From Anaerolineae bacterium (GTDB taxonomy: Bacteria > Chloroflexota > Anaerolineae > CG2-30-64-16): 27,223 bases of DNA. Positions within the stretch are counted from its first letter, which is position 1. Every line of letters starts with the position of its first letter. Positions 7,513 through 23,878 of this stretch are shown here, one piece after another. The stretch covers positions 1 through 27,223 of the forward strand of contig JALOOE010000014.1 of NCBI GenBank assembly GCA_025454565.1, given 5' to 3'. The notes beneath the pieces were generated by a model that saw only the letters and a program-made list of their open reading frames with translations, was not told the origin of the DNA and searched no databases. The translations under genes and the position numbers were made by a program.

Positions 7513-7541
7513 TTGACAGCCTGCTTTCTTAAGGGTAGAAT
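7513..7541 (+). promoter_or_regulatory. Sigma70 promoter heading the catabolic cluster
   Basis: TTGACA (7513-7518), 17 nt, TAGAAT (7536-7541). Confidence 0.85.
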
Positions 7542-7549
7542 TTACCTAC

Positions 7550-7582
7550 TCATCAATGATGAGCGTGGTGCACCATTGATGA
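7550..7582. promoter_or_regulatory. Candidate operator (inverted repeat) just downstream of the predicted transcription start
   Basis: TCATCAATG-N15-CATTGATGA, perfect 9-bp arms. Confidence 0.5.
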
Positions 7583-7629
7583 GCTTCAAGACCGAAGTCA
7601 CCTCAATTGAGTCGCAAGGGCGTACTGAC

Positions 7630-8442: not shown

Positions 8443-8450
8443 AGGGCGTC

Positions 8451-9491
8451 ATGCAATACACACACCTGGGCCGCAGCGGCGTGACGGTCAGCCGTCTGTG
8501 TCTTGGCACTATGAATTTCGGTGGGGCGGCCGACGAACGGGAAAGTTACGCGATCATGGATCGCGCACTTGAGTTGGGGATCAACTTCTTCGACACGGCC
8601 GATGTATACGGCAACCCGCAGCGCAAGGGGCTGACCGAGGCGCTGATCGGCCGCTGGTTTGCCCAGGGCGGTGGGCGGCGCGAGCGGATCGTCCTGGCAA
8701 CCAAGCTCTTCAGCCCGATCGGCCCCGAGATCAATGATCGCGGCCTGTCCGCCTATCATATCCGCCGTGCCTGCGAAGGCAGCCTGCGCAGGCTGCAAAC
8801 CGACCACATTGACCTCTATCAGATGCACCATATTGATCGCGGCCGGCCCACGACCAGCCAATTGGATTGGTTCGGCGCCGAGCGCGAGCTGGTCTTCCCC
8901 GCGCATCTCGATCCTGCACCGCCGTGGGCAGAGATCTGGCAGGGGATGGAACAGGCGATGCGCGAAGGCAAGATCACCTATGTCGGCAGCAGCAACTTCG
9001 CGGGATGGAACATCGCCCAGGCCAATGAGCGGGCGCGCGGCCGCGGGCTGATCGGTCTGGTGTCGGAACAGAGCGTTTACAGCCTGGCGAAGCGCACCGT
9101 CGAGCTGGAAGTCATCCCGGCCTGTCGCGCCTATGGCGTCGGGTTGTTGCCGTGGAGTCCCCTTGCCGGCGGCTTGCTCGCCGGCGGCCTGGCGCAGGCC
9201 GAAGCGGGCAGCCGCCGCGCGCACAAGAAACTCACACCTGATCAGCAGACGCGAGTGGAGCAGTATGAGGCGTTGTGCCGCGATTTTGGCGAGGAGCCGG
9301 CCGTCGTGGCCCTGGCCTGGCTGTTGCACAATCCGGTCGTGACGGCGCCTGTGATCGGCCCCCGGACGGTGGCGCAACTGGAAGGCGCCGTGAAGGCGCT
9401 GAGCGTGAAGTTGGACGGCGAGACGCTCGACCGGCTGGACAGGATCTGGCCGGGGCCGGGCGGTCAGGCGCCGGAAGCCTACGCCTGGTGA
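8451..9491 (+). CDS. Aldo/keto reductase
   Basis: MQYTHLGRSGVTVSRLCLGTMNFG; catalytic tetrad in DTADVYG, LATK and YQMH; GSLRRLQTDHIDLY, YVGSSNFAG, EQSVYSL, PWSPLAGGLL, PVIGPRT. Confidence 0.93.
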   Translation: MQYTHLGRSGVTVSRLCLGTMNFGGAADERESYAIMDRALELGINFFDTADVYGNPQRKGLTEALIGRWFAQGGGRRERIVLATKLFSPIGPEINDRGLSAYHIRRACEGSLRRLQTDHIDLYQMHHIDRGRPTTSQLDWFGAERELVFPAHLDPAPPWAEIWQGMEQAMREGKITYVGSSNFAGWNIAQANERARGRGLIGLVSEQSVYSLAKRTVELEVIPACRAYGVGLLPWSPLAGGLLAGGLAQAEAGSRRAHKKLTPDQQTRVEQYEALCRDFGEEPAVVALAWLLHNPVVTAPVIGPRTVAQLEGAVKALSVKLDGETLDRLDRIWPGPGGQAPEAYAW

Positions 9492-9528
9492 ACACAACCC
9501 TAATCGACAGGTCGGTGGAGCAGCGAGG

Positions 9529-11778
9529 ATGAACGAAACGACTCTGCGCGAGCTCGGCGAGTGGGCCGCGCTCGGCTTCTACGAAGGGATCGATCTCCCC
9601 CGACCGCGCGGCTATGGCCTGGCCTACCGCCGGCTCTACGAGAACATGTCGATCGCCATCTCGCCGGGACGATACCTGTTTCCGTTCGAACCGCTGCCGC
9701 ACGCGCGGACATGGACGGAGCATGGCGTGTGGACGGCCACCAGCCTGATCCTCGATCACAACCACCACTGCGGACTGCGCGTCAACGACCTCATCGCGGC
9801 CGAGCGCAAACAGCAGTTCCCGCAGCACGCAGCCTTCATCGACGCCTTGACCGCCGACCTCAGGCGCCGGCTCCCCCACTTCGGCGGCTACACCCACAGC
9901 AACCCCGACATGCGCCGTGTGGTGAACGAGGGCTTTGCGGCAATGGTCGCCGAGCTGGACACCGAGCTGGCGCACGTCCAGGCCGGGCAGAACGGGGCCG
10001 GACCGGGCACGCTCGACCTGCTGCTGGCGCTCAAAGATTACGCGGTCGGTGTGGCGGCCTTCCACGGCCGCGCCAGCCAGACGATCCGGCAGGCCGCAGA
10101 CCGGGCGATTGATCCTGACCAACGCCGCAAACTGGCCCTGATCGCCGATGCCTTCGCCCGCTGCTTCGTGACCCCGGCCACCAGCTTCCTGGAGGGCCTG
10201 CTCGCCGTCCATTTCACCTGGCTGCTCGATGGATGCGACAGCATCGGCCGCTTCGACCAGGCGTTGGGACCGCTGTTCGAGCGCGACCTGCAAGAGGGCA
10301 GGTTGGATATCGGCTTCGCCCGCGAACTTCTGGATGAGCTATGGGGCGATTTCGAGCGGTTCAACGGCTGGAACATGCAGATCGGCGGCTTCCGGCCCGA
10401 CGGCGCCGACGGCTGCAACGCGCTCACGCTGGAGTGTATCGCGGCGTGCCAGCGCAACCACCATCGCCGGCCCAACGTCGCGCTGCGCATCACCACGCAG
10501 ACGCCCGATGAGGTTGTCGAGGCTGCGCTGCACGCGCTCGCCGAAGGCAGCGGCCGGCCCGCGCTGTACAACGACGATCTCTACGTGCGCACGCTGGCTG
10601 GCCTCGACCTCGGCCTCACCCGGGAGGACGCGACCGAGATCGGCTTCGGCGGCTGCACCGAGACGATGATCGCCGGCCTCTCCAACTGCGGCAGCCTGGA
10701 AGGGGAGATCAATTTGGCGCTGGCGCTCGAACTGGCGTTATTCGACGGCCGCGATCCGCTGACCGGCAGGCAGGAAGGCCCGCACACCGGCCGTTTCGAG
10801 GAGATGGCGACCTACGCTGAATTCGAGGCCGCGGTGCGCAGGCAGATCCAATACCTGACGGACGGATTCGTCGCGCGCAGCAAAGATGCGCTGGCCCGCC
10901 GCTTCGCCGAGGGGGATCCCAAGCTGCCGCGCACCTTCTTCACGCGCGATTGCGTGAAACGCCACCGCTCGTTCGAAGCCGGCGGCGCGCGGTACAACTG
11001 GGCGGTGGTGTCGTACCAGGGGATCGCGAATCTGATCGATGGCCTGGCCGCGGTGCGGACGTGCGTGTTCGAAAGCCCAGACCTCACCCCCCCATCCCCC
11101 TCTCTTGCGAGGAAAGGAGGGGCAGGCGCAGCAGTTTCCAGGACCGAGCTCCTGGCCGCGCTGCGCGCGGACTTCGATGGCTACGAACTGCTGCGCCGCC
11201 GCTTACAGGCCGCGCCCAAGTTCGGCAACGACGACCCGAGCGTCGACGACCCCGGCGCCGACATCATCCGCTTCGCCTGGGAGCAGCTCCTGGCGCACGA
11301 GACCCCGCGCGGGGGCCGCTACCTGCCCTCGTGCATCCTTTTCGTCACCTACTACGCCGCGGGCCTGCAGATCGGCGCGACGCCCGATGGCCGGTGCGGC
11401 CAGGAGGTGCTGGCCGATTCAGTGGGCCCGGCCCAGGGCCGCGACCGCCACGGGCCGACCGCCATGCTCAACTCCGTGGCGAAGCTGCCGCTCCACCTGG
11501 CAGCCGGCACCCCGGTGCTCAACATCCGCTTCACCAGGACACTGCTGGACGAGCCGGAATCGCTCGGCAAGGTCGTCCAGCTCATCCGCGTCTTCTTCGC
11601 GCGCGGCGGGATGCAGATCCAGCTCTCGGTGCTCGACCGCGAGGCGCTTCTGGCCGCGCAGCGCGAGCCTGAAAAACATCGCGATATCATCGTACGCGTG
11701 GGCGGCTACAGCGAGTATTTCGTCAACCTGAACCCGGCACTCCAGGCGAGCGTGATTGCGCGCGCGGAGCACCACTGA
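9529..11778 (+). CDS. Glycyl radical enzyme (PFL-like superfamily), substrate unknown
   Basis: C-terminal radical motif IIVRVGGYSEYFVNL (RVGGY at 11695-11709), thiyl Cys loop FGGCTE (Cys at 10654-10656), plus SIGRFDQAL, PKFGNDD..VD, GATPDGR, GPTAMLNSV.KL, LNIRF, GGMQIQ. 749 aa. Confidence 0.9.
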   Translation: MNETTLRELGEWAALGFYEGIDLPRPRGYGLAYRRLYENMSIAISPGRYLFPFEPLPHARTWTEHGVWTATSLILDHNHHCGLRVNDLIAAERKQQFPQHAAFIDALTADLRRRLPHFGGYTHSNPDMRRVVNEGFAAMVAELDTELAHVQAGQNGAGPGTLDLLLALKDYAVGVAAFHGRASQTIRQAADRAIDPDQRRKLALIADAFARCFVTPATSFLEGLLAVHFTWLLDGCDSIGRFDQALGPLFERDLQEGRLDIGFARELLDELWGDFERFNGWNMQIGGFRPDGADGCNALTLECIAACQRNHHRRPNVALRITTQTPDEVVEAALHALAEGSGRPALYNDDLYVRTLAGLDLGLTREDATEIGFGGCTETMIAGLSNCGSLEGEINLALALELALFDGRDPLTGRQEGPHTGRFEEMATYAEFEAAVRRQIQYLTDGFVARSKDALARRFAEGDPKLPRTFFTRDCVKRHRSFEAGGARYNWAVVSYQGIANLIDGLAAVRTCVFESPDLTPPSPSLARKGGAGAAVSRTELLAALRADFDGYELLRRRLQAAPKFGNDDPSVDDPGADIIRFAWEQLLAHETPRGGRYLPSCILFVTYYAAGLQIGATPDGRCGQEVLADSVGPAQGRDRHGPTAMLNSVAKLPLHLAAGTPVLNIRFTRTLLDEPESLGKVVQLIRVFFARGGMQIQLSVLDREALLAAQREPEKHRDIIVRVGGYSEYFVNLNPALQASVIARAEHH
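11081..11122. repeat. Palindromic CCCCTCTC...GAGGGG-type element inserted in frame in the GRE gene
   Basis: ACCTCACCCCCCCATCCCCCTCTCTTGCGAGGAAAGGAGGGG encodes DLTPPSPSLARKGG between the conserved VFE and (V)SRTELLAAL segments. Confidence 0.72.
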
Positions 11779-11840
11779 AGGATGCCCCAACGTCCCAACA
11801 ACCCAACATCCGCTTCTCTTGGTCGCTAGAAGGTGCATAA

Positions 11841-12788
11841 GTGATTACGCAGACAGGCCCGTTACAAACCTCGAAGCCATTTTCTGCAAGTGCGTCCGCC
11901 CACCGACCGCGAAGCCATCTGCACCGCCGCGAGGCCATCGAAGGCTTTCTGATGGCGCTCCCGTGGCTGATCGGCTTTCTTCTCTTTACGGCGGGGCCGA
12001 TTACGGCCGCTCTGCTCTTGGGGTTCACTGAGTGGGACATTATCTCACCGCCCAAGTTCGTGGGCTTAGAGAACTGGGTTTCGATATTCACCGAAGACGA
12101 GCTCTTCAGGAAATCCGCAGTCGTCACGCTCACCTATGCGGCGATGGCCGTGCCGCTGCATGTGATCCTGGGCTTTGTCCTCGCCTCGCTCCTGAATAGC
12201 AAAGTGCCGGGCACCAACACCTTTCGTGCAATCTATTATCTGCCGACCGTTTTGCCGCTTGTCGCTACCGCGGTGCTATGGAGTTGGGTACTGAATCCGG
12301 AATTCGGGCTCGTGAACTACATGCTCTCGTTGATCGGCGTTCAAGGACCCGGCTGGCTGACGGATGAGAATTGGTCGCTGCCATCCATTGTGCTGATGAA
12401 CCTGAACTTCATCGGCATCACGGTGGTCATCATGTTGGCCGGTCTGCAACGGGTGCCGCAAGAGATGTATGAAGCCGCGCAACTCGATGGCGCCAACCGC
12501 CGCCAGATTCTGCGTTATGTCACAATTCCCTTCATGTCACCCGTCATCTTCTTCACCATCATCCTCAACCTAAACAACTCGTTCCAGACCTTTACACAGG
12601 CCTATGTGATGACCAACGGCGGGCCGGGCACCTCAACACTGTTCTATATGCTCTATTTGTTCAACAACGCTTTCCGCTATTTCAAAATGGGCTATGCTAA
12701 TGCGTTGGCGCTGGTCTTGTTCCTGACGATCATCACCATCACCATCACGCAGTTCCGCCTCAGCCGTCTCTGGGTCTATTCGGACTAG
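11841..12788 (+). CDS. Carbohydrate ABC transporter permease 1 (CUT1, MalF/UgpA-like)
   Basis: GFLMALPWLIGFLLF, FVGLENW, FRAIYYLP.VLP.VA, LAGLQRVPQEMYEAAQLDGA (EAA motif), VMTNGGP, FRYFKMGYANA. GTG start with AGAAGG upstream. Confidence 0.92.
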   Translation: MITQTGPLQTSKPFSASASAHRPRSHLHRREAIEGFLMALPWLIGFLLFTAGPITAALLLGFTEWDIISPPKFVGLENWVSIFTEDELFRKSAVVTLTYAAMAVPLHVILGFVLASLLNSKVPGTNTFRAIYYLPTVLPLVATAVLWSWVLNPEFGLVNYMLSLIGVQGPGWLTDENWSLPSIVLMNLNFIGITVVIMLAGLQRVPQEMYEAAQLDGANRRQILRYVTIPFMSPVIFFTIILNLNNSFQTFTQAYVMTNGGPGTSTLFYMLYLFNNAFRYFKMGYANALALVLFLTIITITITQFRLSRLWVYSD

Positions 12789-12798
12789 CGGAGGAAAG

Positions 12799-13623
12799 AT
12801 GACAGCCAAATCTATGACAACCGCGTCATGGGGCAGTGCTCGGCAGCTACGTAATGCCTTGCAGCGCGGGGCCGTCCTGCTCTTGTTGATCCTCTTCTCG
12901 GGACCTTTCATTCTGCCGCTCTTCTGGCTGCTGTCAACCGCGTTGAAAGCCCCTGAGCAAGTCTATGTCTATCCGCCGCAATGGATTCCGAACCCCATCC
13001 GGCTGGAAAACTTCCGCGAAGCCTGGACCGCGGCGCCGTTCGGTCGCTATCTCGTGAACACGATCATCACGACGGCGCTACCGCTCATCGGTGAGGTTTT
13101 TGTTTCGGCGTGTGTGGCCTATTCCTTCGCGCGCACCCGCTGGCCGGGACGTGACCTGGCTTTCTCGCTGTGTGTTGCAACGATGTTGATGCCCTGGGTC
13201 GCCACATTCATCCCGGTGTTCCTGTTGTTCAAGACATTGGGCTGGGTTAATACCTTTCTGCCGTTGATTGTGCCATCGTACTTCGGTATCCCCTTCTACA
13301 TCTTCCTGCTGCGGCAGTTTATGCTCACGCTGCCGCACGAGCTGGAGGACGCGGCCCGCATGGATGGCGCCAACACCTTCCAAATCTTCGGACGCATCAT
13401 CCTGCCGTTACTCGGGCCATCGTTGGCTACGGTGGCGATCTTCTCATTCATGAATCACTGGAACAGCTTCATGGGACCGATGATCTACCTGCACAGCCAG
13501 AAGCTCAAAACCCTTTCGCTGGGCCTGGCAACCTTCGAGTCGGCGATGATGGGCACAGGTGGCTCGTATGCGCTGGTCAGTTCGCGGCTACATCTGCTGA
13601 TGGCCGCCGCAGTGTGGTCATGA
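12799..13623 (+). CDS. Carbohydrate ABC transporter permease 2 (MalG-like); last TM helix apparently missing
   Basis: PQWIP, FGRYLVNT, AYSFAR, FLLRQFMLTLPHELEDAARMDGA (EAA motif), WNSFMGPMIYL. Ends abruptly at LMAAAVWS*. Confidence 0.85.
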   Translation: MTAKSMTTASWGSARQLRNALQRGAVLLLLILFSGPFILPLFWLLSTALKAPEQVYVYPPQWIPNPIRLENFREAWTAAPFGRYLVNTIITTALPLIGEVFVSACVAYSFARTRWPGRDLAFSLCVATMLMPWVATFIPVFLLFKTLGWVNTFLPLIVPSYFGIPFYIFLLRQFMLTLPHELEDAARMDGANTFQIFGRIILPLLGPSLATVAIFSFMNHWNSFMGPMIYLHSQKLKTLSLGLATFESAMMGTGGSYALVSSRLHLLMAAAVWS

Positions 13624-13720
13624 AAGGAGGCGCTTCTGCCCAAAACGACGAAGCAGTCCACAAACCTGAATGAACCGAATCCGATCAGCAAAATCACACT
13701 ACCTCAAAAGGAGAGGCATC

Positions 13721-15132
13721 ATGAATCCCAAGAAAAGCTTGTCCCGTCGTCAATTCCTGGTGGGTGTTCAGGCTGCGGCCGTAACCGCAGTCCTGGCGAG
13801 CTGCGCTCCGCAGCCCACTCCCGCGCCGGCGGCAGCCCCCAAGCCGGCCGCGACCGATGCTGCTGCGCCCAAGCCGGCGGCCACCACCGCGCCCGCGCCG
13901 AAGGCGAAGCAGATCGTGCGGTTCACCATGTTCGGGCACCCGAACATGGTCGAGCAGATGGTGCCGCTCTTCAATATGAAGAATCCAGATGTGGAGGTGC
14001 AGTTCGAGCGCAGTGAATCCCAAGGGTATTACGAAAAGCTGCCGGCAGCCATCGCTGGCGGCGGCGCGTGGGATGTCTTCCGCCTGGGTCTCGACTGGGG
14101 CCAACAGTACGGCGGCAAAAATGCCCTGGCGGATATCACCGACCTGGTCAAAGCGGATACGAAGTATCCGGCCAGCGGCTATGTGGATGGTCTGCTGGAC
14201 GCGTGGAAGGTGGCCGAGAAGCAGATCGGCATCCCCGGCTGGACGAACAACTTCTGGCTGTACTACAACAAGAAGTTGTTCGATGAAGCCGGCATCGCCT
14301 ATCCCACGACCAAGACGACGTGGGATGAGTATGTCGAGATGACGAAAAAGCTGACCAAGCGCGACGGCAATACGATCACACAATATGGCGCGGCGGCAAT
14401 ACGATCACACAATATGGCGCGGCGACCTGGGGCGCTTCGATCACGCGCTGCCGGGTGGATGTCTGGAACGCCGGCGCGCCCTTCTGGTACAATGACGATT
14501 TGAAGTCCGTCTCCTTCACCAATCCCACTGCGGTCAAAGTGATGCAGGATGAGGCCGATCTGATGAACGTCCACAAGGTGCATCCCAGCCCGCTGAACCC
14601 GCCCAGCTCGCCGGCTACCATCCTGTCGAAAAAGGTTGCTACTGAAATGATGGGCGACTGGTATGCCTGGGATCAGGTTTCCTCCTGGAGCCCCGATTTC
14701 CAGGTGACGATGCTGCCGCTGCGCGGCGACAAGCGCACCAACCTCTATGTGCATGATGGGTTATGCATCAATGCCCAGTCGAAAGTCCGAGATGCTGCCT
14801 ACAAGTGGATCTCGTGGTGGTCAGCCGATCCTGAGTCGTGGAACATCCAGGGGCCTGTGGTCTTCCCCACCACCAAGAAGATGTACGAAGATCCAACGCT
14901 GCGGGCACTGTGGGCCCGGTCGCCGCGGCCACAGACGATGATTGACCTGGCCATGGAGCACGTGAAATACGCTAAGGTCAACCGGTTGGGGATCGAAGCG
15001 GCGCAGATGACTAACGAGGTCTGGAATCCGGAGATCGACAACCTCTGGCGCGCCAAGGTGACGGCTCAGCAGGCGATGGATACCATCCAGACCAAAGCCA
15101 CCGATCTGATGAAAAAGACGCGCGGCTCTTGA
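13721..15132 (+). pseudogene. Sugar ABC transporter substrate-binding lipoprotein (Tat signal), split by a 29-nt tandem duplication
   Basis: ATG 13721 with GGAGAGG SD. SRRQFL twin-arginine motif, lipobox LASC, PAT linker, WLYYNKKLFDEAGIAYP..TWDEY. Continues in another frame (DVWNAGAPFW...KATDLMKKTRGS*). Removing one repeat copy gives a single 460-aa ORF. Confidence 0.88.
14365..14422 (+). repeat. Perfect 29-nt tandem duplication
   Basis: CGGCAATACGATCACACAATATGGCGCGG at 14365-14393 and again at 14394-14422. Confidence 0.97.
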
Positions 15133-15152
15133 GGCAGACCGAGTCACTGACG

Positions 15153-16040
15153 ATGCAAGCTATCCGTCTTCTCGATCACCCCATTGTTGTGCCGCACATG
15201 GACGACCGCATGGGCGCGAACATCAACGGCCCATCGCTGATTCGCGTGCCGGAGTGGATCGAGGCGCCTCTCGGCAAGTACTATCTGTACTTTGCTGCCC
15301 ACAACGATACCTATCTGCGACTGGCATATGCTGATGCCCTATCCGGGCCGTGGCGTATCTACGGCCCGGGCGTGCTGCATCTGGCGCAAACTGCCTTAAG
15401 TCAGCACATCGCTTCCCCCGATGTTCACGTGGATGAACGCGAGCGGCGCATCCGTATGTACTTTCACGGCTGCTGTGTGGAAGGCCCAGTGTCCCAGGTC
15501 ACGTGTGTCGCGACCTCAACCGACGGGCTCCAGTTTACAGCACAGCCAGAACACCTCGGCGCGGCCTACTGGCGCGTGTTCGAGTGGGAAAGCTGGTATT
15601 ATACGCTGGAAATGCCAGGGCAGTTCCGCCGCTCGCGTCATCCTTTGACCGGCTTCGAGCCGGGGCCGCACCTCTTCACGCGGAACATGCGCCACAGCGC
15701 CGTGCTGTTGCGCGGTCACACGCTACACGTCCTGTGGAGCAATGCCGGCGACTGCCCGGAACGCATCTGGTCATGCGCCATTGATCTGCGCCCCGATTGG
15801 TTTGACTGGCAGGCGTCCGCGCCAAGTCTGCTGTTGCAGCCGGAGATGAGTTGGGAAGGCGCTGATCTGCCGTTGGCGCCATCCAAGCGCGGGCTGATCC
15901 TGGAGCGCGCGCGGCAATTGCGCGATCCGGCCATCTTCGAGGAGGATGGCCGGGTCTATCTGCTGTATTCGGTGGCCGGTGAACACGGCATCGCCATCGC
16001 TGAAGTGGCGGACATATCGCCATCGCATACGGAGGTCTGA
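15153..16040 (+). CDS. Conserved hypothetical protein, probable five-bladed beta-propeller glycoside-hydrolase-like fold
   Basis: Blade-like motifs NINGPSLI, KYYLYFA, IASPDVHVD...RIRMYFHG, MRHSAV, LRDPAIFEEDGRVYLLYSVAGEHGIAIA, recalling GH32/43/68/130-type propellers. No signal peptide. Confidence 0.6.
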   Translation: MQAIRLLDHPIVVPHMDDRMGANINGPSLIRVPEWIEAPLGKYYLYFAAHNDTYLRLAYADALSGPWRIYGPGVLHLAQTALSQHIASPDVHVDERERRIRMYFHGCCVEGPVSQVTCVATSTDGLQFTAQPEHLGAAYWRVFEWESWYYTLEMPGQFRRSRHPLTGFEPGPHLFTRNMRHSAVLLRGHTLHVLWSNAGDCPERIWSCAIDLRPDWFDWQASAPSLLLQPEMSWEGADLPLAPSKRGLILERARQLRDPAIFEEDGRVYLLYSVAGEHGIAIAEVADISPSHTEV

Positions 16041-16041
16041 C

Positions 16042-16953
16042 TTGAGTCCATCACTGCGCGGTTACTACGCCATCGCCAATACGCCATTCACCGCGGATGG
16101 CGCCATCATCTGGGCTGATCTCGAACGCGAGTGGGATTTCATCGCCCATTCCGGCAGCCACGGCCTGGTCTGGCCGGTCAACGACAGCGAGTTCTCGCTC
16201 CTGTCCTATCGGGAGCGCGTCGAGGGATTTCGGCGCGTCGTGCAGGTCGTCGGCAACCGCATCCCGGTGGTGCTGGGGGTAGCCGACACCCATGCGTCTG
16301 GCGCAGCCGACTATGCCGAGGCAGCGGCCAAAGCCGGCGCCGATCTGGTGGTCGCCATGCCGCCCTGGCACACCAAGCTCGCCACGCGGCCGCAATATAT
16401 CGCCTACTACCGCGCCATCGCCGACGCCTGCGGCCTGCCCATTTGCATCCAGAACGTCTTCCCGCCGATGGGTTCCGATCTCTCGGCCGAGACGGTAGCA
16501 GCTATCTGTGATGGCGTGCCGCAGGTGCAGTGCATCAAAGAGGAGCGCCTGCCGCAAGGGGACGCGGTGTCGAGCATCATTGACCAAAAAATCCCACAAC
16601 TGAAGGCGATCTTCGGCGGCGGCTGGTGTTTCAGCATGATCGCCCACCACAAGCGAGGCGCGGCCGGCAACATGGCGAGCAGCGCCGTCCCGGAGGTGCA
16701 TGCCCAAATCTGGGATCTCATGGAAGCGGGCCGCGAAGACGAGGCGCGCAAGATTCAGACCCTGTTGAACGAGCTGATGCGCGCTGAAACGTCCATACAA
16801 ACTCTGCACGGCGTCAAGCAATCGCTCGTCCTGCGCGGCATTTTTACTTCGGTCGCCATGCGCAATATTGCGCCGCGGGTGATCGACGCCCCCTACCTGC
16901 GCGAGCTCGAATGGGCGCTGTCGCTCCTGCAACCCTATCTGAAGCCGATCTGA
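16042..16953 (+). CDS. Dihydrodipicolinate synthase (DapA) family lyase/dehydratase
   Basis: TTG start 6 nt after GGAGG. AIANTPFTADG, SEFSLLSYRER, RIPVVLGV, AKAGADLVVAMPP, YYRAIADACGLPICIQN, Schiff-base Lys in CIKEE. Confidence 0.88.
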   Translation: MSPSLRGYYAIANTPFTADGAIIWADLEREWDFIAHSGSHGLVWPVNDSEFSLLSYRERVEGFRRVVQVVGNRIPVVLGVADTHASGAADYAEAAAKAGADLVVAMPPWHTKLATRPQYIAYYRAIADACGLPICIQNVFPPMGSDLSAETVAAICDGVPQVQCIKEERLPQGDAVSSIIDQKIPQLKAIFGGGWCFSMIAHHKRGAAGNMASSAVPEVHAQIWDLMEAGREDEARKIQTLLNELMRAETSIQTLHGVKQSLVLRGIFTSVAMRNIAPRVIDAPYLRELEWALSLLQPYLKPI

Positions 16954-16964
16954 GAGGGAATGCG

Positions 16965-18215
16965 ATGCACGAACTAAAGCTGCTGACAAAAGCCTGGCTC
17001 GGCGACGAGGAGACGAGCTTCCCGCTGCCGGCGGGTTGGGAGGCCACGATCTACGACGCGCCCGGCGCGCCGATGCTCCCCGCGGCCGCCATCGGCGAAG
17101 CACTGGCGCGTCCACTGGGCTGCCGGCGCCTGGCCGAAACGGCCGCGGGCAAGCGCAGCGCGGCGATCGTCGTGGACGATCTGACGCGGCCGACGCCGGC
17201 CGGCGAGGTGATCCCGTTCATCCTCGCCGAGCTTCACGCCGCCGGGATGCCGGACGAGGGCATTGCTTTCGTGGTCGGCGTGGGGACGCACCGGTCGGTC
17301 ACCGCCGAGGAGGCCGCCAGGAAGGTGGGCGCCGACATCGCAGCCCGTTATCCGGTCATCTGCCACGAAGCGTTCAGTGGCGACCTGATCGGGCTGGGGA
17401 ACCTGGACGACGGCACGCCGCTCTATCTTTCCGAGGTGGTCGTACGTGCGGATGTCCGCATCTTCATCACCAGTGTGATCCCACACAGCGGCGCCGGCTT
17501 CGGCGGCGGCGCCAAGCTGGTGTTGCCTGGGGTGGCCGGCTATGTGAGCACGCACTACAACCATCGGCAGTTGCCCAAGCGGCCGCGGGGCTTGCTGGCC
17601 CACGCAAGCCCCGACGATCTGCGCGACGGCGCGGTGAAGGCGGCGCGGCGGCTGGGCGTAGACATGAGTGTGAACGTGGTCTGTGACACGCGCCGCCGGA
17701 TCGTCGGCGTCTTCGCCGGCGATATCGAGGAGGCGCACGATGCGGCCTGCCGCTATGGTTACGGGGTCTACGAGACGCCGATCCCGAAGGCCGTTGCCCA
17801 GGCGACCGACATCCTCATCATTGACAGCTATCCTCAGGACAACGATACGCAGTGCTTCTACAAGTCGCTCTGGCCGCGCGACTATTTCCCCAACGCGTAT
17901 CACGTGATGATCAACCCCTGTACTGACCGCATCTGGTATCACGGGCTGACGCTGGGGATGGATTATGCGCGCTTCCTGCGGCTGGAGGCGCAGCGGCCGC
18001 CGGCTCCGCCGCGACCCAGGCCCCCGATCGGGCAGCGGGGGCAACTGCTCACCCTTTCGGAGGGCTATCCGCCCGAAGAATACTACAAACGCTATCCCGA
18101 CGCCGTGCTGTACACCGCGTGGCAGGAACTGATGGATGACCTGGCCCGTGTCTGCCCGCAGGCGAAAGTGGCGGTGATCCCATGTGCGCCGCTCCAGATG
18201 ATCCGTCTGGAGTGA
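16965..18215 (+). CDS. LarA-family (nickel-pincer-nucleotide-dependent) 2-hydroxyacid racemase/epimerase
   Basis: IVVDDLTRPTP, GVGTHR, PHSGAGFGGGAKLVLPGVAG....HYNH. The His, Lys(+10) and His(+16 from Lys) spacing equals that of His174/Lys184/His200 in L. plantarum LarA. Confidence 0.88.
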   Translation: MHELKLLTKAWLGDEETSFPLPAGWEATIYDAPGAPMLPAAAIGEALARPLGCRRLAETAAGKRSAAIVVDDLTRPTPAGEVIPFILAELHAAGMPDEGIAFVVGVGTHRSVTAEEAARKVGADIAARYPVICHEAFSGDLIGLGNLDDGTPLYLSEVVVRADVRIFITSVIPHSGAGFGGGAKLVLPGVAGYVSTHYNHRQLPKRPRGLLAHASPDDLRDGAVKAARRLGVDMSVNVVCDTRRRIVGVFAGDIEEAHDAACRYGYGVYETPIPKAVAQATDILIIDSYPQDNDTQCFYKSLWPRDYFPNAYHVMINPCTDRIWYHGLTLGMDYARFLRLEAQRPPAPPRPRPPIGQRGQLLTLSEGYPPEEYYKRYPDAVLYTAWQELMDDLARVCPQAKVAVIPCAPLQMIRLE

Positions 18216-18231
18216 GGTCAGGAGAAAGACG

Positions 18232-18570
18232 ATGAAGTGGCAAGCGATTGTGATCCATCCCAGCGATGACGTCGCCACGGCGATCACCGAACTGAAAGCC
18301 GGTGCATGCGTGCAGGTCGAAGTGACGGGGCGTTTGCTGGAGGTCACGCTGCGGGACGACATCGCGTTCGGGCACAAGTTCGCATTGCATGATCTGAACG
18401 CGGGCGACCAGATTCTCAAATACGGAATGCCTATCCTCAAGGCACAGCAGCCGATCCGCGCCGGCGAGTGGGTGCATACGCACAATGGTCGCAGCGACCG
18501 GTGGGGACCGCAGAACGAAGATAGCGTCATCTTCATGGCGCCGACTGGGCCCCAAAAGGAGCCAGCATGA
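18232..18570 (+). CDS. UxaA/GarD-family dehydratase small subunit (SAF domain)
   Basis: IHPSDDVATA, IAFGHKFAL.DL..GD.ILKYG.PI..A...I.AGEWVHTHN. Overlaps the large subunit by 4 nt (ATGA). Confidence 0.9.
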   Translation: MKWQAIVIHPSDDVATAITELKAGACVQVEVTGRLLEVTLRDDIAFGHKFALHDLNAGDQILKYGMPILKAQQPIRAGEWVHTHNGRSDRWGPQNEDSVIFMAPTGPQKEPA

Positions 18571-19697
18571 CACAAGAGATCCTGGGCTATCTGAGGCCCG
18601 ATGGGCAGATCGGCATCCGCAACAAGGTGGCAATCATCTTCACGGTGGATTGTTCGAAGTTCGTCGCCGAGAAGATCCACCGGCTGTTCCCTGAACAGAC
18701 GCAGGTATTCGGGATCCCCAGAGGGTGCGTCTTCAAGCCGGGGGCAGTCAACAAGATCGTGGCCTTGGGCAAACATTCGCAGTACGGGGGCGTCCTGGTG
18801 GTCGGGTTGACGTGCGAGGCCACAGAAGCCTACACCGTAGCCAACCGCATCGCCGAATCGGGGAAAGCCGTCGAAGCGATCAAGATCGGTGACGACGGCG
18901 GCGATCTGAAGGCGATCGAAAAGGGCAGCCGCATCATGCTGCGCCTCTTGCAGCACACCTCGTTGGCCGAACGCGTCAAGCTGACGCCGGCCGATCTGAT
19001 CGTGGGCGCCGAGTGCGGCGGCTCCGATGCGACCTCCGGCATCGCAGCCAATCCGGCGGTCGGCGTGGCGGCCGATATGCTGATTGACGCTGGCGGCACC
19101 TTCATGCACTCGGAGGAAAAAGAACTGATGGGGTGCGGCGACGTGTTGGCGGCGCGCGCGATCAACGGTGCGGTGGCGCACGACATCAAGAGCCTGATCG
19201 AGAAGGTGGAGCAGGAATGCTTTGCCATCGGCCGGTTCGGTTACGGCTTCGGCAATCGTCTGGGCGGGCTGAGCAGCATCGAGGAGAAGTCATATGGCGC
19301 GTTAGCGAAGTCGGGCAGCCGGCCGTTGCAGGGCGTGCTGCACACCTTCCAGCGGCCCCCGCATAAGGGTTACTGGATCCAGTACGGCGAGCCAGACGCC
19401 GTCACCTTCCACGGCGATCCCGATGGTCTGAACCAGCGCATGGCCTGCGGCGCGCACCTGAATCTGTTCACGACGGGCTGTGGCTCGACAACCGGCTCCC
19501 TCGGCCCTGTGATCAAGGTGATCGCGAACCCGCACCGCCGCCAGTTGATCGAAGACAACGCTGATGTTGATGCGTCGGGCATCATCTTGGGCGAGAAGAC
19601 GATCCAGGAGGTGGGGCGGGAGATCTATGCCGAAATCCTGGCCGTGGCCGTAGGCAAGCTGACCAAGTCCGAGATCCATGGGCACTATGAGGCATAG
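18567..19697 (+). CDS. UxaA/GarD-family sugar-acid dehydratase large subunit
   Basis: GYLRPDGQIGIRN, GGVLVVGLTCE, GAECGGSDATSGIAANPAVG..AD, GN.LGGLSSIEEKS.G, GAHLNLFTTGCGS, PVIKV, DVDASGI, GKLTKSE..GH. Confidence 0.88.
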   Translation: MTQEILGYLRPDGQIGIRNKVAIIFTVDCSKFVAEKIHRLFPEQTQVFGIPRGCVFKPGAVNKIVALGKHSQYGGVLVVGLTCEATEAYTVANRIAESGKAVEAIKIGDDGGDLKAIEKGSRIMLRLLQHTSLAERVKLTPADLIVGAECGGSDATSGIAANPAVGVAADMLIDAGGTFMHSEEKELMGCGDVLAARAINGAVAHDIKSLIEKVEQECFAIGRFGYGFGNRLGGLSSIEEKSYGALAKSGSRPLQGVLHTFQRPPHKGYWIQYGEPDAVTFHGDPDGLNQRMACGAHLNLFTTGCGSTTGSLGPVIKVIANPHRRQLIEDNADVDASGIILGEKTIQEVGREIYAEILAVAVGKLTKSEIHGHYEA

Positions 19698-19727
19698 GAC
19701 GCGGCGTTGGAGCCGTTGGATGGCACA

Positions 19728-20678
19728 ATGACCCATCTTCAAATCGTTGGCCTGGGCCAAGCGACTCTGGATGTGTTGCTGCGACTGCGGGACTTGCCGA
19801 CTTGGGAGACTTACACGCGGCTACAAGGGTTCGGTTTGGAGGGCGGCGGCCCGGCGGCGACGGCTCTGGTGGCTGCTGCCAAACTGGGCGCGCGCGTGGG
19901 CTTCGTCGGCACGGCCGGCAATGACGCCGCCGCCGAGAGCAAGCTGCGCTCGATGCGCGCATGCGGCGTGGATCTGAGCCGGCTGGTGGTGCGTGCGGCG
20001 CCGGAAGGGCAGGTGACGGGGGTCTTCGTCCACAGCGAAACCGGCGAACGCACTTTCGCCTTGATGACCGGGCCAGAGGAGCACTTGTTGCGGGTTGACG
20101 AACTGGATCGCGACTACATCGAATCAGCGGACTATCTTCACCTGGATGGGTTTCATGCACAAGCCGCGTTGCAGGCCGCCCGGTGGATGCGCGCGGCGGG
20201 CAAACAGGTGGTGCTCGACGGACATCGGACGACGGGCCCGATCAAGCCGCACATGGCCGCATTGGTCGAGCACGTCGATATCCTGATCAGCGGCGCTGGT
20301 TTCGTGCAGGCGCTCACCGGCATCTCAGATACGCTCGCAGCCGGCGCGGCTGCGCTCCGCTTTGGCCCTCGTCTCGTCGTGCAGACGGAGGGCGCCGGCG
20401 GCAGCTACACCGTCACAGCGCACGATCGTTTTCACACGCCGGCCTTTGAGGTGGCCGTTCTCGACACCACGGGAGCGGGCGATGTGTTTCATGGCGCGTA
20501 TATCGTGGGACTGCTACATGGCTGGGATCTACGTGATATCGCGCAATTTGCGACCGCGGTCGCTGCGATCAAATGCGGCAAGCTTGGGGGACGCGCGGGC
20601 ATTCCATCCCTCAAGGAAACGCAGGTATTTCTGAAAGCTCGTGGCGTCGAACTGGGCGTCTCCGGCGCCACCACATGA
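19728..20678 (+). CDS. PfkB-family carbohydrate kinase
   Basis: GGGPAATALVAAAKLGARVGFVG..GND and PAFEVAVLDTTGAGDVFHGAY...AAIKC.KLGGRAGIP. Confidence 0.92.
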   Translation: MTHLQIVGLGQATLDVLLRLRDLPTWETYTRLQGFGLEGGGPAATALVAAAKLGARVGFVGTAGNDAAAESKLRSMRACGVDLSRLVVRAAPEGQVTGVFVHSETGERTFALMTGPEEHLLRVDELDRDYIESADYLHLDGFHAQAALQAARWMRAAGKQVVLDGHRTTGPIKPHMAALVEHVDILISGAGFVQALTGISDTLAAGAAALRFGPRLVVQTEGAGGSYTVTAHDRFHTPAFEVAVLDTTGAGDVFHGAYIVGLLHGWDLRDIAQFATAVAAIKCGKLGGRAGIPSLKETQVFLKARGVELGVSGATT

Positions 20679-20692
20679 GGTAAAGAGGCAGC

Positions 20693-21556
20693 ATGGCACT
20701 TGACTCGATGTTGACAGAATTGAAAAAGGCGCAGCAGAACCGTTACGGCATCCCCTCTTTCAACACATTCGATTCGCGCGGCGCCGACGGCATCTTCGCA
20801 GCGTTGGCGGAGAAGCGCGCACCGGGCATCGTGGCGATCTATTCCGGGGTGTTCGACCAGCCGCAAGGCGGCGCGCTGACGGCCTACGTCCGCAAGCTGG
20901 CCGAGCAGGCGCCAGGGCCGGTGGCGGTGCTTCTGGATCATGGCGCCAGCTTCGAACACTGCGTCAAGGCGCTGACGCTCGGTTGCACCGATGTGATGTT
21001 CGACGGCTCCAAGCTCCCGCTCGAGGAGAACATCGCGACGACCAAACTGGTTGTGCGAGCAGCGCACAAGGTGGGCGCGTCAGTCGAGGCCGAGCTGGGG
21101 CATGTGGGCCGCGGATCAGAGTATCGAAGCTTCGGATTGCTGCGCAAGGGCTTCACCAAGCCGGATGAAGTCGAACGCTTCGTGGCTGAGACGGGCGTGG
21201 ACGCGCTGGCGATCGCCATCGGTACGGCACACGGCAAGTACGAATGTGAGCCGCAACTGGCGCTCGACTTGTTGACCGACATCCGGCAGCGCGTCGCTGT
21301 GCCGCTGGTGCTGCACGGCGGCTCAGGATTGGCGGCCGAGCAGTTCCGCGCGGCGATCGCCGGCGGCATCTCTAAGGTCAATATTTTCACAGCGATGGCG
21401 GAGGCTGCAACCGAAAGCATGGTGGATGCGGCGCGGGCCGATGCGCCTTCCTACTTCGGGATCACGACCAGGATCACCGAAGCATTCAAGGAACGCTGCG
21501 CGGCGCATCTGGACATCTTCGGCGCCACTGGACGCGCCGCTGATGGACGGCTCTAA
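20693..21556 (+). CDS. fba: Class II (metal-dependent) ketose-bisphosphate aldolase
   Basis: YGIPSFN, LLDHG, TDVMFDGS.LP.EEN, VEAELGHVG, AIAIGTAHGKY, PLVLHGGSG, GISKVNI. Could be a fructose- or tagatose-bisphosphate type or act on another substrate. Confidence 0.9.
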   Translation: MALDSMLTELKKAQQNRYGIPSFNTFDSRGADGIFAALAEKRAPGIVAIYSGVFDQPQGGALTAYVRKLAEQAPGPVAVLLDHGASFEHCVKALTLGCTDVMFDGSKLPLEENIATTKLVVRAAHKVGASVEAELGHVGRGSEYRSFGLLRKGFTKPDEVERFVAETGVDALAIAIGTAHGKYECEPQLALDLLTDIRQRVAVPLVLHGGSGLAAEQFRAAIAGGISKVNIFTAMAEAATESMVDAARADAPSYFGITTRITEAFKERCAAHLDIFGATGRAADGRL

Positions 21557-21566
21557 GGATGGAGAC

Positions 21567-22778
21567 ATGAATACCTTGCGCGCTATCCACTCGGCCTTCG
21601 AGCGTAGCGAAGGCATCCTGCGGCTGGCCCCGAACTGGGTGCCCCGGCTCAGCAACACGCCCGGCCGACGCCTGCGCCTGCACCCGGACGACTACTTCAC
21701 ATTGGGAATGCAGCGCGGGGCTATCAAAGAGCGCTGGTTTTGCTCCAGCGTACACGCCAACGGCGCGGCGGCGCCCGCGGATGAGGGCATGAGCTACGTC
21801 GCACTATCCGACCGCCAGGAAGATAAGCGCCTGTTCCGGGATGTCGTGGACGAGTTGGGGCCGGCGCTCATCGGCGATGAGCTATACCGGCGTCATGGCA
21901 CCTGGCCGATGTTCAGCAAATTCTATGACTATGACGGGCGGCTAGCGTTCCACATCCACCCCGACGATGCAGCCTCGGCCCAGGTGGGCATGTTGGGTAA
22001 GCCGGAGGCGTACTACTTTCCGTTCCAACTCAACGATCATCTCGGTCAGTTTCCCGTCACCTACTTCGGTTTCGACCCGGATGTTACGCGTGAGCAGGTC
22101 AAGGAGCGCTTGCTGCAATTCGAGTCGGCGGACAATCGCATCACTGAGCTTTCCAGGGGGTATCGGATCCAACTGGGCACCGGCTGGTATACTCCGCCCG
22201 GCGTGGTTCATGCGCCCGGTTCTGTGCTGACCTACGAGCCGCAGTGCAACAGCGATATCGGCTCGGCGCAGGAGAACGTGGTGAACGGCGTGGTCGTGCC
22301 CTATCGCTCCCTGGTGAGCAGTTGCCCGGACGACAAGAAGCACGATATTGACTACATCATGAGCTTGATGGACTGGGAGAGGAACGTTGATCCCCATTAT
22401 CGGCGGCGCTATTTCCGGCCGTCGATCCCCTGCCCAACCGTTGACGACCGCTACCGCGAACAGTGGATAACTTATGGGAATGATCATTTCGGCGCGAAGG
22501 AGTTGACCGTACTGCCCGGCCAGAGCGTCGTGGTGAAGGATCGCGTGGCGTTCGGCTGCATCCTGATTCAAGGGCACGGCCAGTTCGGGGTGCATGACGC
22601 CGAAGCAGCCATCATGCTTCGCTATGGGCAGATGAGCGCCGACGAGTATTTTGTGAGTGAAGCGGCCGCCCAGGCCGGCATCCCCATCACAAACCACAGC
22701 CGCTGGGAGCCGATGGTCTTGCTGAAGCACTTCGCCGCGAACCACCCCCACATGCCGCCGGCGCCCAGCGATGACTGA
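21567..22778 (+). CDS. Conserved protein with phosphomannose-isomerase-like cupin motifs (putative sugar or sugar-phosphate isomerase)
   Basis: GILRLAPNWVPR...PGRRLRLHPDDY, WPMFSKFYD, FHIHP...GKPEAYYF and GTGWY.PPGVVHAPGS..TYEPQ give the H-x-H/E/H metal-ligand pattern of PMI-type cupins. Confidence 0.62.
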   Translation: MNTLRAIHSAFERSEGILRLAPNWVPRLSNTPGRRLRLHPDDYFTLGMQRGAIKERWFCSSVHANGAAAPADEGMSYVALSDRQEDKRLFRDVVDELGPALIGDELYRRHGTWPMFSKFYDYDGRLAFHIHPDDAASAQVGMLGKPEAYYFPFQLNDHLGQFPVTYFGFDPDVTREQVKERLLQFESADNRITELSRGYRIQLGTGWYTPPGVVHAPGSVLTYEPQCNSDIGSAQENVVNGVVVPYRSLVSSCPDDKKHDIDYIMSLMDWERNVDPHYRRRYFRPSIPCPTVDDRYREQWITYGNDHFGAKELTVLPGQSVVVKDRVAFGCILIQGHGQFGVHDAEAAIMLRYGQMSADEYFVSEAAAQAGIPITNHSRWEPMVLLKHFAANHPHMPPAPSDD

Positions 22779-22789
22779 AGGAGGCGCCG

Positions 22790-23878
22790 ATGCGCATCAC
22801 TGAACAGCCCTGGGGTAGAACACAGGATGGCCAGGCGGTTAGCCTCTACACGCTCAGTAATGCGAACGGGATGCAGGCTCAGATCGCCAACTATGGCGGC
22901 GCCGTCGTCTCACTCACCGCGCCGGATCGTCACGGACGTTGGATTGACGCGGTCTTGGGCTTCGACACGCTGGTCAGCTATCTCACGCCCAAGCCGCATC
23001 CCTATCTGGGGGTCGTAGTAGGCCGCTATGGCAACCGTATCGCCAACGGCCGGTTCACGCTGAACGGCGTGGCGTATGTCCTGGCGCAAAACAATGGCCT
23101 GAATCACCTGCATGGCGGGATCAATGGTTTCGACCGCGTGGTGTGGCAGGCGCGCAGCATGTCGAGCGCCGAGGGGCCGCGCCTGGAAATGGCTTACTTG
23201 AGTAAGGATGGCGAAGAAGGCTACCCCGGCAACCTATCGGTCACCTTGAGCTATACTTTGACCAGCGACAACGCGCTCAAGATCGCGTATGATGCCATCA
23301 CCGACAAAGACACGGTGCTCAACCTCACCAACCACTCATATTTCAATCTGGCGGGCGCGGCCGCAGGCGATATCCTGGGGCATGAAATCCAGATCAATGC
23401 CGATTACTTCACACCCGTGACCGGGGACTCGATCCCGACCGGGGAGCTGCGGGCCGTCAAAGGCACACCGATGGATTTCACCCGGCGCACGGCCATCGGC
23501 CTGCGTATTGGTCAGGACGACGAGCAGTTGGCGTTTGGTGGTGGGTACGATCACAATTGGGTGCTCAATGATCGCGATTGGCGGACCGAGAAAGCGGTCG
23601 AATTGTACGAGCCGGCGACCGGTCGCGTGATGGAAGTCTACACATCCGAGCCAGGCGTGCAGTTGTACACGGGCAACAACCTGGCGGGCAACGTGATCGG
23701 TCGGGGCGGAATCACGTACCACAAACACCAGGGGCTCTGCCTGGAGACGCAGCACTTCCCTGACTCGCCCCACCATCCGCACTTCCCATGCACGGTGCTC
23801 CGATCGGGCGAGCGCTATACCTCCACCACGATCTACAAATTCCTGGCAAGCTATAGTGCGTCAGATAAAGATTCGTAG
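22790..23878 (+). CDS. galM: Aldose 1-epimerase (mutarotase)
   Basis: VGRYGNRIA, NHLHGG..GFD, DGEEGYPGNL, NLTNHSYFNL, GYDHNW, PGVQLYTGN, CLETQHFPDSP. Confidence 0.93.
   Translation: MRITEQPWGRTQDGQAVSLYTLSNANGMQAQIANYGGAVVSLTAPDRHGRWIDAVLGFDTLVSYLTPKPHPYLGVVVGRYGNRIANGRFTLNGVAYVLAQNNGLNHLHGGINGFDRVVWQARSMSSAEGPRLEMAYLSKDGEEGYPGNLSVTLSYTLTSDNALKIAYDAITDKDTVLNLTNHSYFNLAGAAAGDILGHEIQINADYFTPVTGDSIPTGELRAVKGTPMDFTRRTAIGLRIGQDDEQLAFGGGYDHNWVLNDRDWRTEKAVELYEPATGRVMEVYTSEPGVQLYTGNNLAGNVIGRGGITYHKHQGLCLETQHFPDSPHHPHFPCTVLRSGERYTSTTIYKFLASYSASDKDS

Follow-up and report, generated by a model that had tools for sequence, protein, structure and literature searches.

Several described systems bear on the four genes at positions 16042 to 19697 of contig JALOOE010000014.1, a 27,223-nucleotide stretch of DNA from an Anaerolineae bacterium that is referred to here, at its full length, as the window; the genes encode a dihydrodipicolinate synthase (DHDPS)-family enzyme, a homologue of the lactate racemase LarA and a two-gene dehydratase of the UxaA/GarD type. 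The L-fucose/D-arabinose locus of Campylobacter jejuni sets the DapA-like gene Cj0481 with Cj0482 and Cj0483, which encode a split UxaA dehydratase (PMC6946681). Within the LarA superfamily, the survey of Desguin et al. (2020, Table S1, PMC7583248) gives an association of 100% between LarAH group 5 and COG2721 ("altronate dehydratase"), so the pairing of a LarA homologue with this dehydratase family is not in itself new; for a member of the group, Mar1 of Desulfitobacterium hafniense, the KM for malate is 55 mM (PMC7583248), which suggests that malate may not be its native substrate. Four cysteines proposed to bind iron are conserved across UxaA/GarD enzymes, with the exception of the sulfo-lyase (Watanabe et al., PMC6336799), and a heteromeric UxaA-type L-fuconate dehydratase has been predicted in Paraburkholderia mimosarum (PMC6336799). 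The UxaA-type D-arabinonate dehydratase shows no 2-epimerization, unlike the enolase-type enzyme FucD (figure legend, PMC6336799), and this property provides a rationale for a separate epimerase. A review describes Gln143 in place of the catalytic Tyr in L-2-keto-3-deoxyarabinonate (L-KDA) dehydratase, where Glu173 is regarded as peculiar to this enzyme.

Our interpretation, which we hold at about even confidence, is that the four window genes form a nonphosphorylative sugar-acid module within a larger sugar or glycoside catabolic operon; the module is probably a small breakdown route for acid sugars. LarB, LarC and LarE encoded elsewhere would supply the nickel-pincer nucleotide (NPN) to the LarA homologue, which would invert, through transient hydride transfer, C2 of a 2,3-dihydroxy sugar acid, possibly a C5 or C6 aldonate that may be 6-deoxygenated, so converting an epimer useless to the dehydratase into a usable one. 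The heteromeric, putatively iron-dependent UxaA/GarD-type dehydratase would then remove water to give a 2-keto-3-deoxy acid, and the DHDPS-family enzyme would hold this keto acid as a lysine Schiff base and more probably dehydrate it further than cleave it. We infer that the steps run in this order, that LarA acts on a sugar acid and that the DHDPS-family enzyme reacts as described. Candidate inversions are those of ribo, talo and allo acids to the arabino, galacto and altro acids accepted by UxaA-type enzymes, such as the conversion of 6-deoxy-L-talonate into L-fuconate or of D-ribonate into D-arabinonate. A first-pass annotation of the sequence had already suggested that an epimerase feeds the dehydratase, and that logic is sustained by recurrent LarA-dehydratase neighborhoods and by the stereochemistry of UxaA, but the allonate and ribonate substrates that it named are guesses. 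The new LarA-family specificity that it foresaw is put forward here, too, as a hypothesis; the fuller version, which we advance tentatively, is that the LarA homologue is an aldonate 2-epimerase of undescribed specificity and that, with UxaA-type and AraD-like dehydratases, it may constitute an undescribed nonphosphorylative route in an anaerobic operon containing a diol-type glycyl radical dehydratase.

All four genes lie on the forward strand at 16042 to 19697, as originally annotated, and are translationally coupled in the order DHDPS-family gene, LarA homologue, SAF gene and GD_AH gene. Counted from the gene upstream of the DHDPS-family gene, the successive spacings are 1, 11, 16 and -4 nucleotides (nt), the last being an overlap, and ribosome-binding sites are present. 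The module described in the first pass is real, but it is merely the middle part of a far larger operon (7513 to 23878, roughly 13 to 15 genes), in which all likely genes are on the forward strand with gaps of a few bases and in which a glycyl radical enzyme is also encoded. Its source is a metagenome-assembled genome, 70.6% complete and in 745 contigs, of which the window is C611.

The LarA homologue (16965 to 18215, forward strand; 416 amino acids [aa]) is a member of the LarA superfamily (Lar_N, PF09861; E value, 3e-47), the Pfam match being confined to the N-terminal domain. Its true start is the ATG at 16965, 11 nt past the DHDPS stop codon, and numbering from that methionine places D71/D72, R75, H109 (equivalent to H108), H174, K184, H200 and K300 (equivalent to K298). 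The DxTRP and GTH motifs and the His/Lys/His spacing for NPN binding noticed at the outset are all found at LarA numbering; the spacing, 10 and 16 residues, matches that of LarA exactly, and the catalytic and NPN residues are invariant across 120 relatives. An AlphaFold model (pLDDT, 86.3; pTM, 0.89) was aligned by Foldseek over its full length with the LarA structures 9eia, 8ezf and 5huq (TM scores of 0.75 to 0.78 over about 450 columns). On these sequence and model comparisons, the protein is predicted to be an NPN-dependent 2-hydroxy-acid epimerase or racemase.

The gene is intact, and its product, placed among the published LarAH groups by NCBIfam scores only, lies outside every characterized LarA class. 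It falls under all LarAH cutoffs; the best score is that of LarAH6 (210 bits; cutoff, 500), followed by a LarAH5 score of 157.6 bits against a cutoff of 462, a shortfall that assigns it to a subgroup other than LarAH5, and the LarAH5 and LarAH6 matches cover the N-terminal domain only. With scores so far under the equivalog cutoffs of both families, a malate racemase was rejected. Clustering with true lactate racemases was named in the first pass as an outcome that would refute the proposal; a true lactate racemase was rejected on model score and specificity residues: the Ni_dep_LarA score is 168.6 bits against a cutoff of 460, and Ser-Gly follows His174 where F175/F176 are expected. The gluconate 2-epimerase GntE was also rejected, since positions 175/176 hold Ser-Gly rather than Glu-Val/Ser and the structure 4nar matches with an E value of 4e-5 over only 86 residues and ranks 19th in the Foldseek search. 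The subclade of the window protein differs from its nearest genome-borne relatives near the active site, at positions 136, 137, 177, 197, 199, 295 to 299, 319 and 324, and changes so placed would fit an altered substrate.

The dehydratase consists of a SAF small subunit (18232 to 18570, forward strand; 112 aa; PF08666, with a match to the galactarate dehydratase N terminus) and a large subunit carrying the Pfam domains GD_AH_second and GD_AH_C (18567 to 19697, forward strand; 376 aa), whose gene overlaps the SAF gene by 4 nt. Together they amount to 112 plus 376 aa, compared with 495 aa for UxaA of E. coli, and in the alignment C29, C54, C83 and C150 of the large subunit have their cysteine counterparts in both UxaA and GarD of E. 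coli. Among 80 metagenome loci that were fetched with the window large subunit, SAF is always upstream of the large subunit, and the two-gene form is kept in more than 40 loci; because the SAF-then-GD_AH pair is so widely preserved, the split dehydratase is not a broken gene, and a uxaA pseudogene was ruled out. The split UxaA-like identity first assigned to these genes is thus upheld by domains, cysteines and a conserved two-subunit form. In the tree, the large subunit belongs to a tight clade of 32 sequences (support, 100) on a long stem. Elsewhere, the neighbors of this clade include a transporter homologous to the one in the window, which adjoins SAF and GD_AH in other loci, a UxaC-like gene, an enolase-type galactonate dehydratase, a 2-hydroxyacid dehydrogenase and aldehyde oxidoreductases.

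Another two-subunit enzyme of this superfamily is the (2R)-sulfolactate sulfo-lyase SuyAB. As a reference for it, we used a SAF, GD_AH and PF03601 exporter locus on plasmid NZ_CP041241 of Sinorhizobium mexicanum (L187:8672-11204), a species reported to carry suyAB; the suyA-suyB-suyZ-like trio is unannotated there and adjoins a GntR/UTRA regulator and an ABC transporter. The window large subunit keeps all four cysteines, whereas the reference keeps only one, and it is 28% identical to the reference and sits on a separate deep branch. These sequence comparisons support a dehydratase of the sugar-acid (UxaA/GarD) type rather than SuyAB.

The DHDPS/NAL-family Schiff-base enzyme (16042 to 16953, forward strand; 303 aa; PF00701; E value, 2e-28) is read from a TTG start codon one base past the upstream stop, with GGAGG 7 to 11 nt upstream. 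It falls under every NCBIfam cutoff, with 77.6 bits against 206 for dapA (TIGR00674) and 38 to 43 bits for the KdgD models; a genuine DapA was rejected on the first of these scores, on the presence of Gln for the catalytic Tyr133 and on VNDSE in place of GTTGE (the Thr44 motif). Across its small DHDPS-like family, Q137 (ICIQN), K166-E167-E168 and WPVNxSE are kept invariant or nearly so. ICIQN aligns with PIMVQD of the solved L-KDA dehydratase, Q137, K166 and E168 correspond to Gln143, Lys171 and Glu173, and WPVNxSE corresponds to the altered substrate motif of that enzyme. The Gln at the catalytic-Tyr site, which had been likened to that of AraD, is accordingly confirmed by this alignment and by the review cited above, and the likeness to AraD stands as far as these three residues; it ends at Glu200, the equivalent of which is missing, so that the protein is not a plain AraD. 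Further dehydration is favored over cleavage because Gln replaces the catalytic Tyr and a Glu lies two residues past the Lys, and these residues lead us to read the protein as a Schiff-base enzyme with dehydratase rather than aldolase activity as the likelier function, and probably not as an AraD orthologue.

The association of LarA homologues with sugar-acid dehydratases recurs. In 8 to 9 of the 80 metagenome loci, a LarA homologue is found no more than a few kilobases from SAF and GD_AH, and in three of them (L174, L179 and L181), it is directly upstream, giving the order LarA-SAF-GD_AH seen in the window. At L129:529-3459, a LarA homologue abuts an IlvD/EDD-type dehydratase, and the large subunit of this locus belongs to the clade of the window enzyme; at L128:4501-5790, a LarA match stands beside an enolase-type gluconate/galactonate dehydratase. 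In a tree of the window clade, the LarA homologues from dehydratase loci and the LarA paralogues of the host's relatives, the homologues from dehydratase loci form two clades apart from that of the window, and all three clades group together, separate from the paralogues; their members adjoin UxaA-type, IlvD/EDD-type or enolase-type sugar-acid dehydratases. For relatives of the DHDPS-family protein (77% identity), the LarA homologue (69%) and the large subunit (82%), the records all give a contig size of 158,309 bp, and we infer from the equal sizes that these records represent one contig on which the trio is conserved. Given this shared contig size and the LarA genes beside SAF and GD_AH in 8 to 9 loci, chance adjacency is unlikely. 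As for the wider contents of these loci, L128 and L129 both also carry a split UxaA-type enzyme, aldehyde oxidoreductases and a 2-hydroxyacid dehydrogenase; L174:2607-6342 and L179:32-3428 hold compact sets of LarA, SAF, GD_AH and a MoCF_biosynth-domain gene beside a class II tRNA synthetase gene, with no sugar genes.

No LarA orthologue was found in 60 relatives of the host (best identities, 30 to 39%), and no orthologue of the split large subunit was found in those 60 relatives and 400 genomes of the phylum (best, 42%, in fused forms); orthologues being missing from the host's relatives, the module appears to be patchily distributed. The neighborhoods of the nearest LarA relatives in genomes were surveyed at 80 loci (L005 to L084) of Poribacteria and Latescibacterota. 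A conserved arrangement there, at about positions 10001 to 11240 of each locus, is kdsB, pyrG, LarA (often in two tandem copies) and the TRAP transporter genes dctQ and dctM; in another subset of these loci, LarA is followed by a Gfo/Idh/MocA gene and a gene for a thiamine diphosphate enzyme.

The remainder of the operon, all of it on the forward strand, gives the module its setting. At its head is a GntR/FCD-type regulator (7513 to 8442; FCD domain), followed by an aldo/keto reductase (8451 to 9491; PF00248; best solved relatives, 8xr2/8jwk, 363 bits) and a glycyl radical enzyme of the 1,2-eliminase type (9529 to 11778; 749 aa; PFL-like and Gly_radical domains). The last of these is under every NCBIfam class cutoff; among solved structures it is closest to the B12-independent glycerol dehydratase (253 bits), and hydroxyproline dehydratase and diol dehydratase are also near. 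Together with the aldo/keto reductase upstream, it could handle a diol derived from an aldehyde released by the aldolase described below. Here and for the other genes sought in the window, the search consisted of domain scans of its open reading frames (ORFs), and no glycyl radical activating enzyme was seen among the ORFs scanned. Next come the two permeases and the binding protein of a CUT1-type sugar ABC transporter (11841 to 15132; Pfam). A 29-nt tandem duplication at 14359 to 14416 (copies 97% identical) breaks the frame of the binding-protein gene, splitting it into 13670 to 14503 and 14455 to 15132; minus one copy, the gene would read through for about 478 aa, and either a genuine mutation or an error of assembly could account for the duplication. 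The relatives of the binding protein are generic sugar-binding proteins only. Between the transporter and the module lies a gene for a 295-aa protein (15153 to 16040), a probable five-bladed beta-propeller of glycosidase-like character, with no Pfam or NCBIfam match and with GH43/32/130-like neighbors in the protein atlas.

Downstream of the module are a PfkB-family ketose kinase (19728 to 20678; PF00294), a class II ketose-bisphosphate-type aldolase (20693 to 21556; PF01116; best PDB match, 7ncc, 174 bits; YdjI, 161 bits; SqiA, 142 to 149 bits), a 403-aa distant relative of type I phosphomannose isomerase, a cupin and putative sugar isomerase (21567 to 22778; no Pfam or NCBIfam family, a weak match to 1qwr and phosphomannose isomerase-like neighbors in the atlas), and a GalM-like aldose 1-epimerase, or mutarotase (22790 to 23878; PF01263; PRK11055, 328 bits, over the cutoff). 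The protein atlas contains numerous unnamed relatives of both the 295-aa and the 403-aa proteins. The best solved relative of the kinase is the E. coli sulfofructose kinase YihV (7ag6; 136 bits, 35% identity), but in a BLASTP alignment with YihV, the residues of the sulfonate triad are altered: K27 is Tyr, N109 is Thr, and R138 falls in a 5-residue deletion. Replacement or loss of these residues is a hint that the ketose carries no charge at C6; on the most likely reading, the operon serves a neutral sugar or glycoside, perhaps a 6-deoxy one.

The first-pass annotation reported no larB, larC or larE in the window, and none of these domains was seen among the ORFs scanned. The genome search that it recommended was only partly successful: a partial larC (277 bits; C173:1-657) and larE (266 bits; C456:7-585) were recovered, larB was not. 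The first lies at a contig end and the second is cut by one, which indicates that the cofactor gene cluster is fragmented in the assembly; all five relatives searched have larB.

Several observations weigh against a sugar-acid module of the kind proposed. Neither larB nor purE was found in the 70.6%-complete assembly, and since the genome encodes three further LarA homologues, larC and larE are not specific support for the one in the window. The closest relatives of the large subunit (57 to 74% identity) mostly have no LarA neighbor, and the closest genome-borne relatives of the LarA homologue (mostly from Poribacteria, 42 to 47% identity) sit by TRAP transporter genes; in the 80 genome loci surveyed, no dehydratase, DHDPS, kinase or aldolase neighbor was found. 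Glu199/Glu200 of L-KDA dehydratase face the Gly/Trp of a conserved FGGGW in a phmmer alignment, which may be imprecise in this stretch. The operon has no recognizable aldose 1-dehydrogenase or lactonase, the aldo/keto reductase being the only candidate, and no recognizable ketoglutarate-semialdehyde dehydrogenase, and the transporter binding-protein gene is frameshifted in the deposited sequence.

The sugar genes that adjoin the module also admit an account in which LarA racemizes a small intermediate or end product of the sugar pathway, the three-carbon aldehyde released by the aldolase being converted to glycerate or lactate and the UxaA-type enzyme making pyruvate from the right enantiomer of glycerate. 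The kinase, class II aldolase, isomerase-like cupin and mutarotase come directly next in the operon, characterized LarA homologues racemize glycerate and other short acids (PMC11770544), the lack of sugar genes around LarA, SAF and GD_AH in L174 and L179 suggests a small acid in those loci, and the relationship of the glycyl radical enzyme to glycerol and diol dehydratases, together with the aldo/keto reductase, places three-carbon chemistry in the operon. We nevertheless think this account unlikely: F175/F176 of lactate racemase are Ser/Gly in the window protein, which scores 169 bits with Ni_dep_LarA against a cutoff of 460, the operon lacks an aldehyde dehydrogenase, and the upstream DHDPS-family enzyme requires a 2-keto-3-deoxy acid with a longer chain than a three-carbon route would provide.

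A little less probable again is the action of the pair on a dicarboxylic hydroxy acid, such as tartrate, a malate-like acid or epimers of glucarate or galactarate, with the DHDPS-family protein resembling 5-keto-4-deoxyglucarate dehydratase. The dehydratase family includes GarD and the DHDPS family includes KdgD, but the KdgD models reach only 38 to 43 bits. Similarly, the best NCBIfam matches of the LarA homologue are to the malate racemase families LarAH6 (210 bits) and LarAH5 (158 bits), both far under the cutoffs of 500 and 462. The 100% linkage of LarAH group 5 to COG2721, and the KM of Mar1, which leaves room for a native substrate other than malate, would fit such an acid; the transporter, however, is of the CUT1 sugar type, with no dicarboxylate carrier, and the His/Gln-Lys pair of malate racemases was not located, a conserved Y-H-G stretch, for which positional equivalence is not established, being present instead.

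It is improbable, in our view, that the genes are cotranscribed without acting in sequence, LarA serving some other step of the operon, such as a non-C2 hydride reaction, and its adjacency to the dehydratase being incidental. The nearest relatives of LarA and of the dehydratase mostly occur apart, the host's relatives lack both genes, so that the operon looks assembled from parts, and genomic context is not always predictive of LarAH activity (Desguin et al., PMC7583248). Set against this are the recurrence of the LarA, SAF and GD_AH order in an independent pair of clades, the apparent conservation of the trio on a second contig, judged from the equal 158,309-bp size, and the retention of both catalytic His residues, as in true racemases and epimerases.

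Most improbable by far is sulfoglycolysis, in which sulfoquinovose would be broken down with SAF and GD_AH as SuyAB and LarA as a sulfolactate racemase: the shared two-subunit architecture, the kinship of the kinase with YihV (136 bits, 35% identity), the existence of class II sulfofructose-phosphate aldolases, the need to invert (S)-sulfolactate before SuyAB acts (a task done by two dehydrogenases in known pathways) and the frequency of sulfonate cleavage among glycyl radical enzymes all speak for it, but it was rejected on the four cysteines, 28% identity and tree position of the large subunit, on the loss of the Lys27-Asn109-Arg138 triad from the kinase and on missing partner genes, there being no sulfolactaldehyde dehydrogenase, sulfite/sulfate exporter or GH31 sulfoquinovosidase among the window ORFs, and, in addition, the mutarotase is GalM-like rather than YihR-like and the aldolase matches 7ncc and YdjI better than it does SqiA or the sulfofructose-phosphate aldolases 8q57 and 8q58.

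When the proposed sugar-acid module is set beside known systems, the C. jejuni locus resembles it in placing a DHDPS-family gene beside a two-gene UxaA-type dehydratase of a nonphosphorylative sugar route and in having a mutarotase in the locus, a likeness at the level of gene arrangement. It has no LarA-type gene, however, and encodes a sugar dehydrogenase, a lactonase-like hydrolase and an aldehyde dehydrogenase of its own; Cj0481 has been read as an aldolase, whereas the window protein has Gln for the catalytic Tyr. LarAH group 5 shares with the window the constant linkage of a LarA-superfamily gene to a UxaA/GarD-family gene, but its neighbors are TctA/TctC-type carriers, in contrast to the sugar ABC transporter, sugar kinase and aldolase of the window. 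GntE1 and GntE2 (LarAH19 and LarAH20; PDB 4nar) carry out NPN-dependent C2 epimerization of aldonates in sugar-acid catabolism, a role like that proposed here; they have Glu-Val at positions 175/176 rather than Ser-Gly, 4nar matches the window protein weakly, and GntE feeds a kinase and the pentose phosphate route, not a dehydratase.

Azospirillum brasilense AraD (3fkk, 7c0c) shares with the window protein the DHDPS/NAL fold, the Schiff-base Lys, the change of Tyr to Gln, a Glu two residues past the Lys and the replacement of GxxGE, but the match of about 74 bits is no better than that to ordinary DHDPS, and the protein has no conserved equivalent of Glu200. In the Weimberg route, AraD is partnered by an IlvD/EDD-type dehydratase, unlike that of the window. 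UxaA, GarD and the D-idonate and D-arabinonate dehydratases have domains and four cysteines in common with the window enzyme (PMC6336799). Its large subunit is at most 42% identical to the fused forms in relatives and about 30 to 40% identical to plasmid-borne members and belongs to a clade with no characterized member. SuyAB, of a common superfamily, has two subunits of equal sizes to those of the window, but SuyB lacks three of the four cysteines kept there, with 28% identity, and a SuyAB-type exporter gene is not found beside the window dehydratase.

To our knowledge, substrates have been assigned to less than half of the LarA superfamily, and the gluconate/mannonate interconversion is the only established sugar-acid reaction. 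The partners in the module (dehydratase, Schiff-base enzyme, transporter and regulator) make the search for a substrate far narrower here than it would be for an orphan LarA gene. If our proposal is correct, a LarA homologue working with a stereospecific dehydratase would offer a general rule for the interpretation of many such gene pairs, and a nickel-dependent step would be added to the nonphosphorylative sugar-acid routes of uncultured marine and sediment bacteria. LarA would then supply in trans the epimerase function that is built into the enolase-type fuconate dehydratases.

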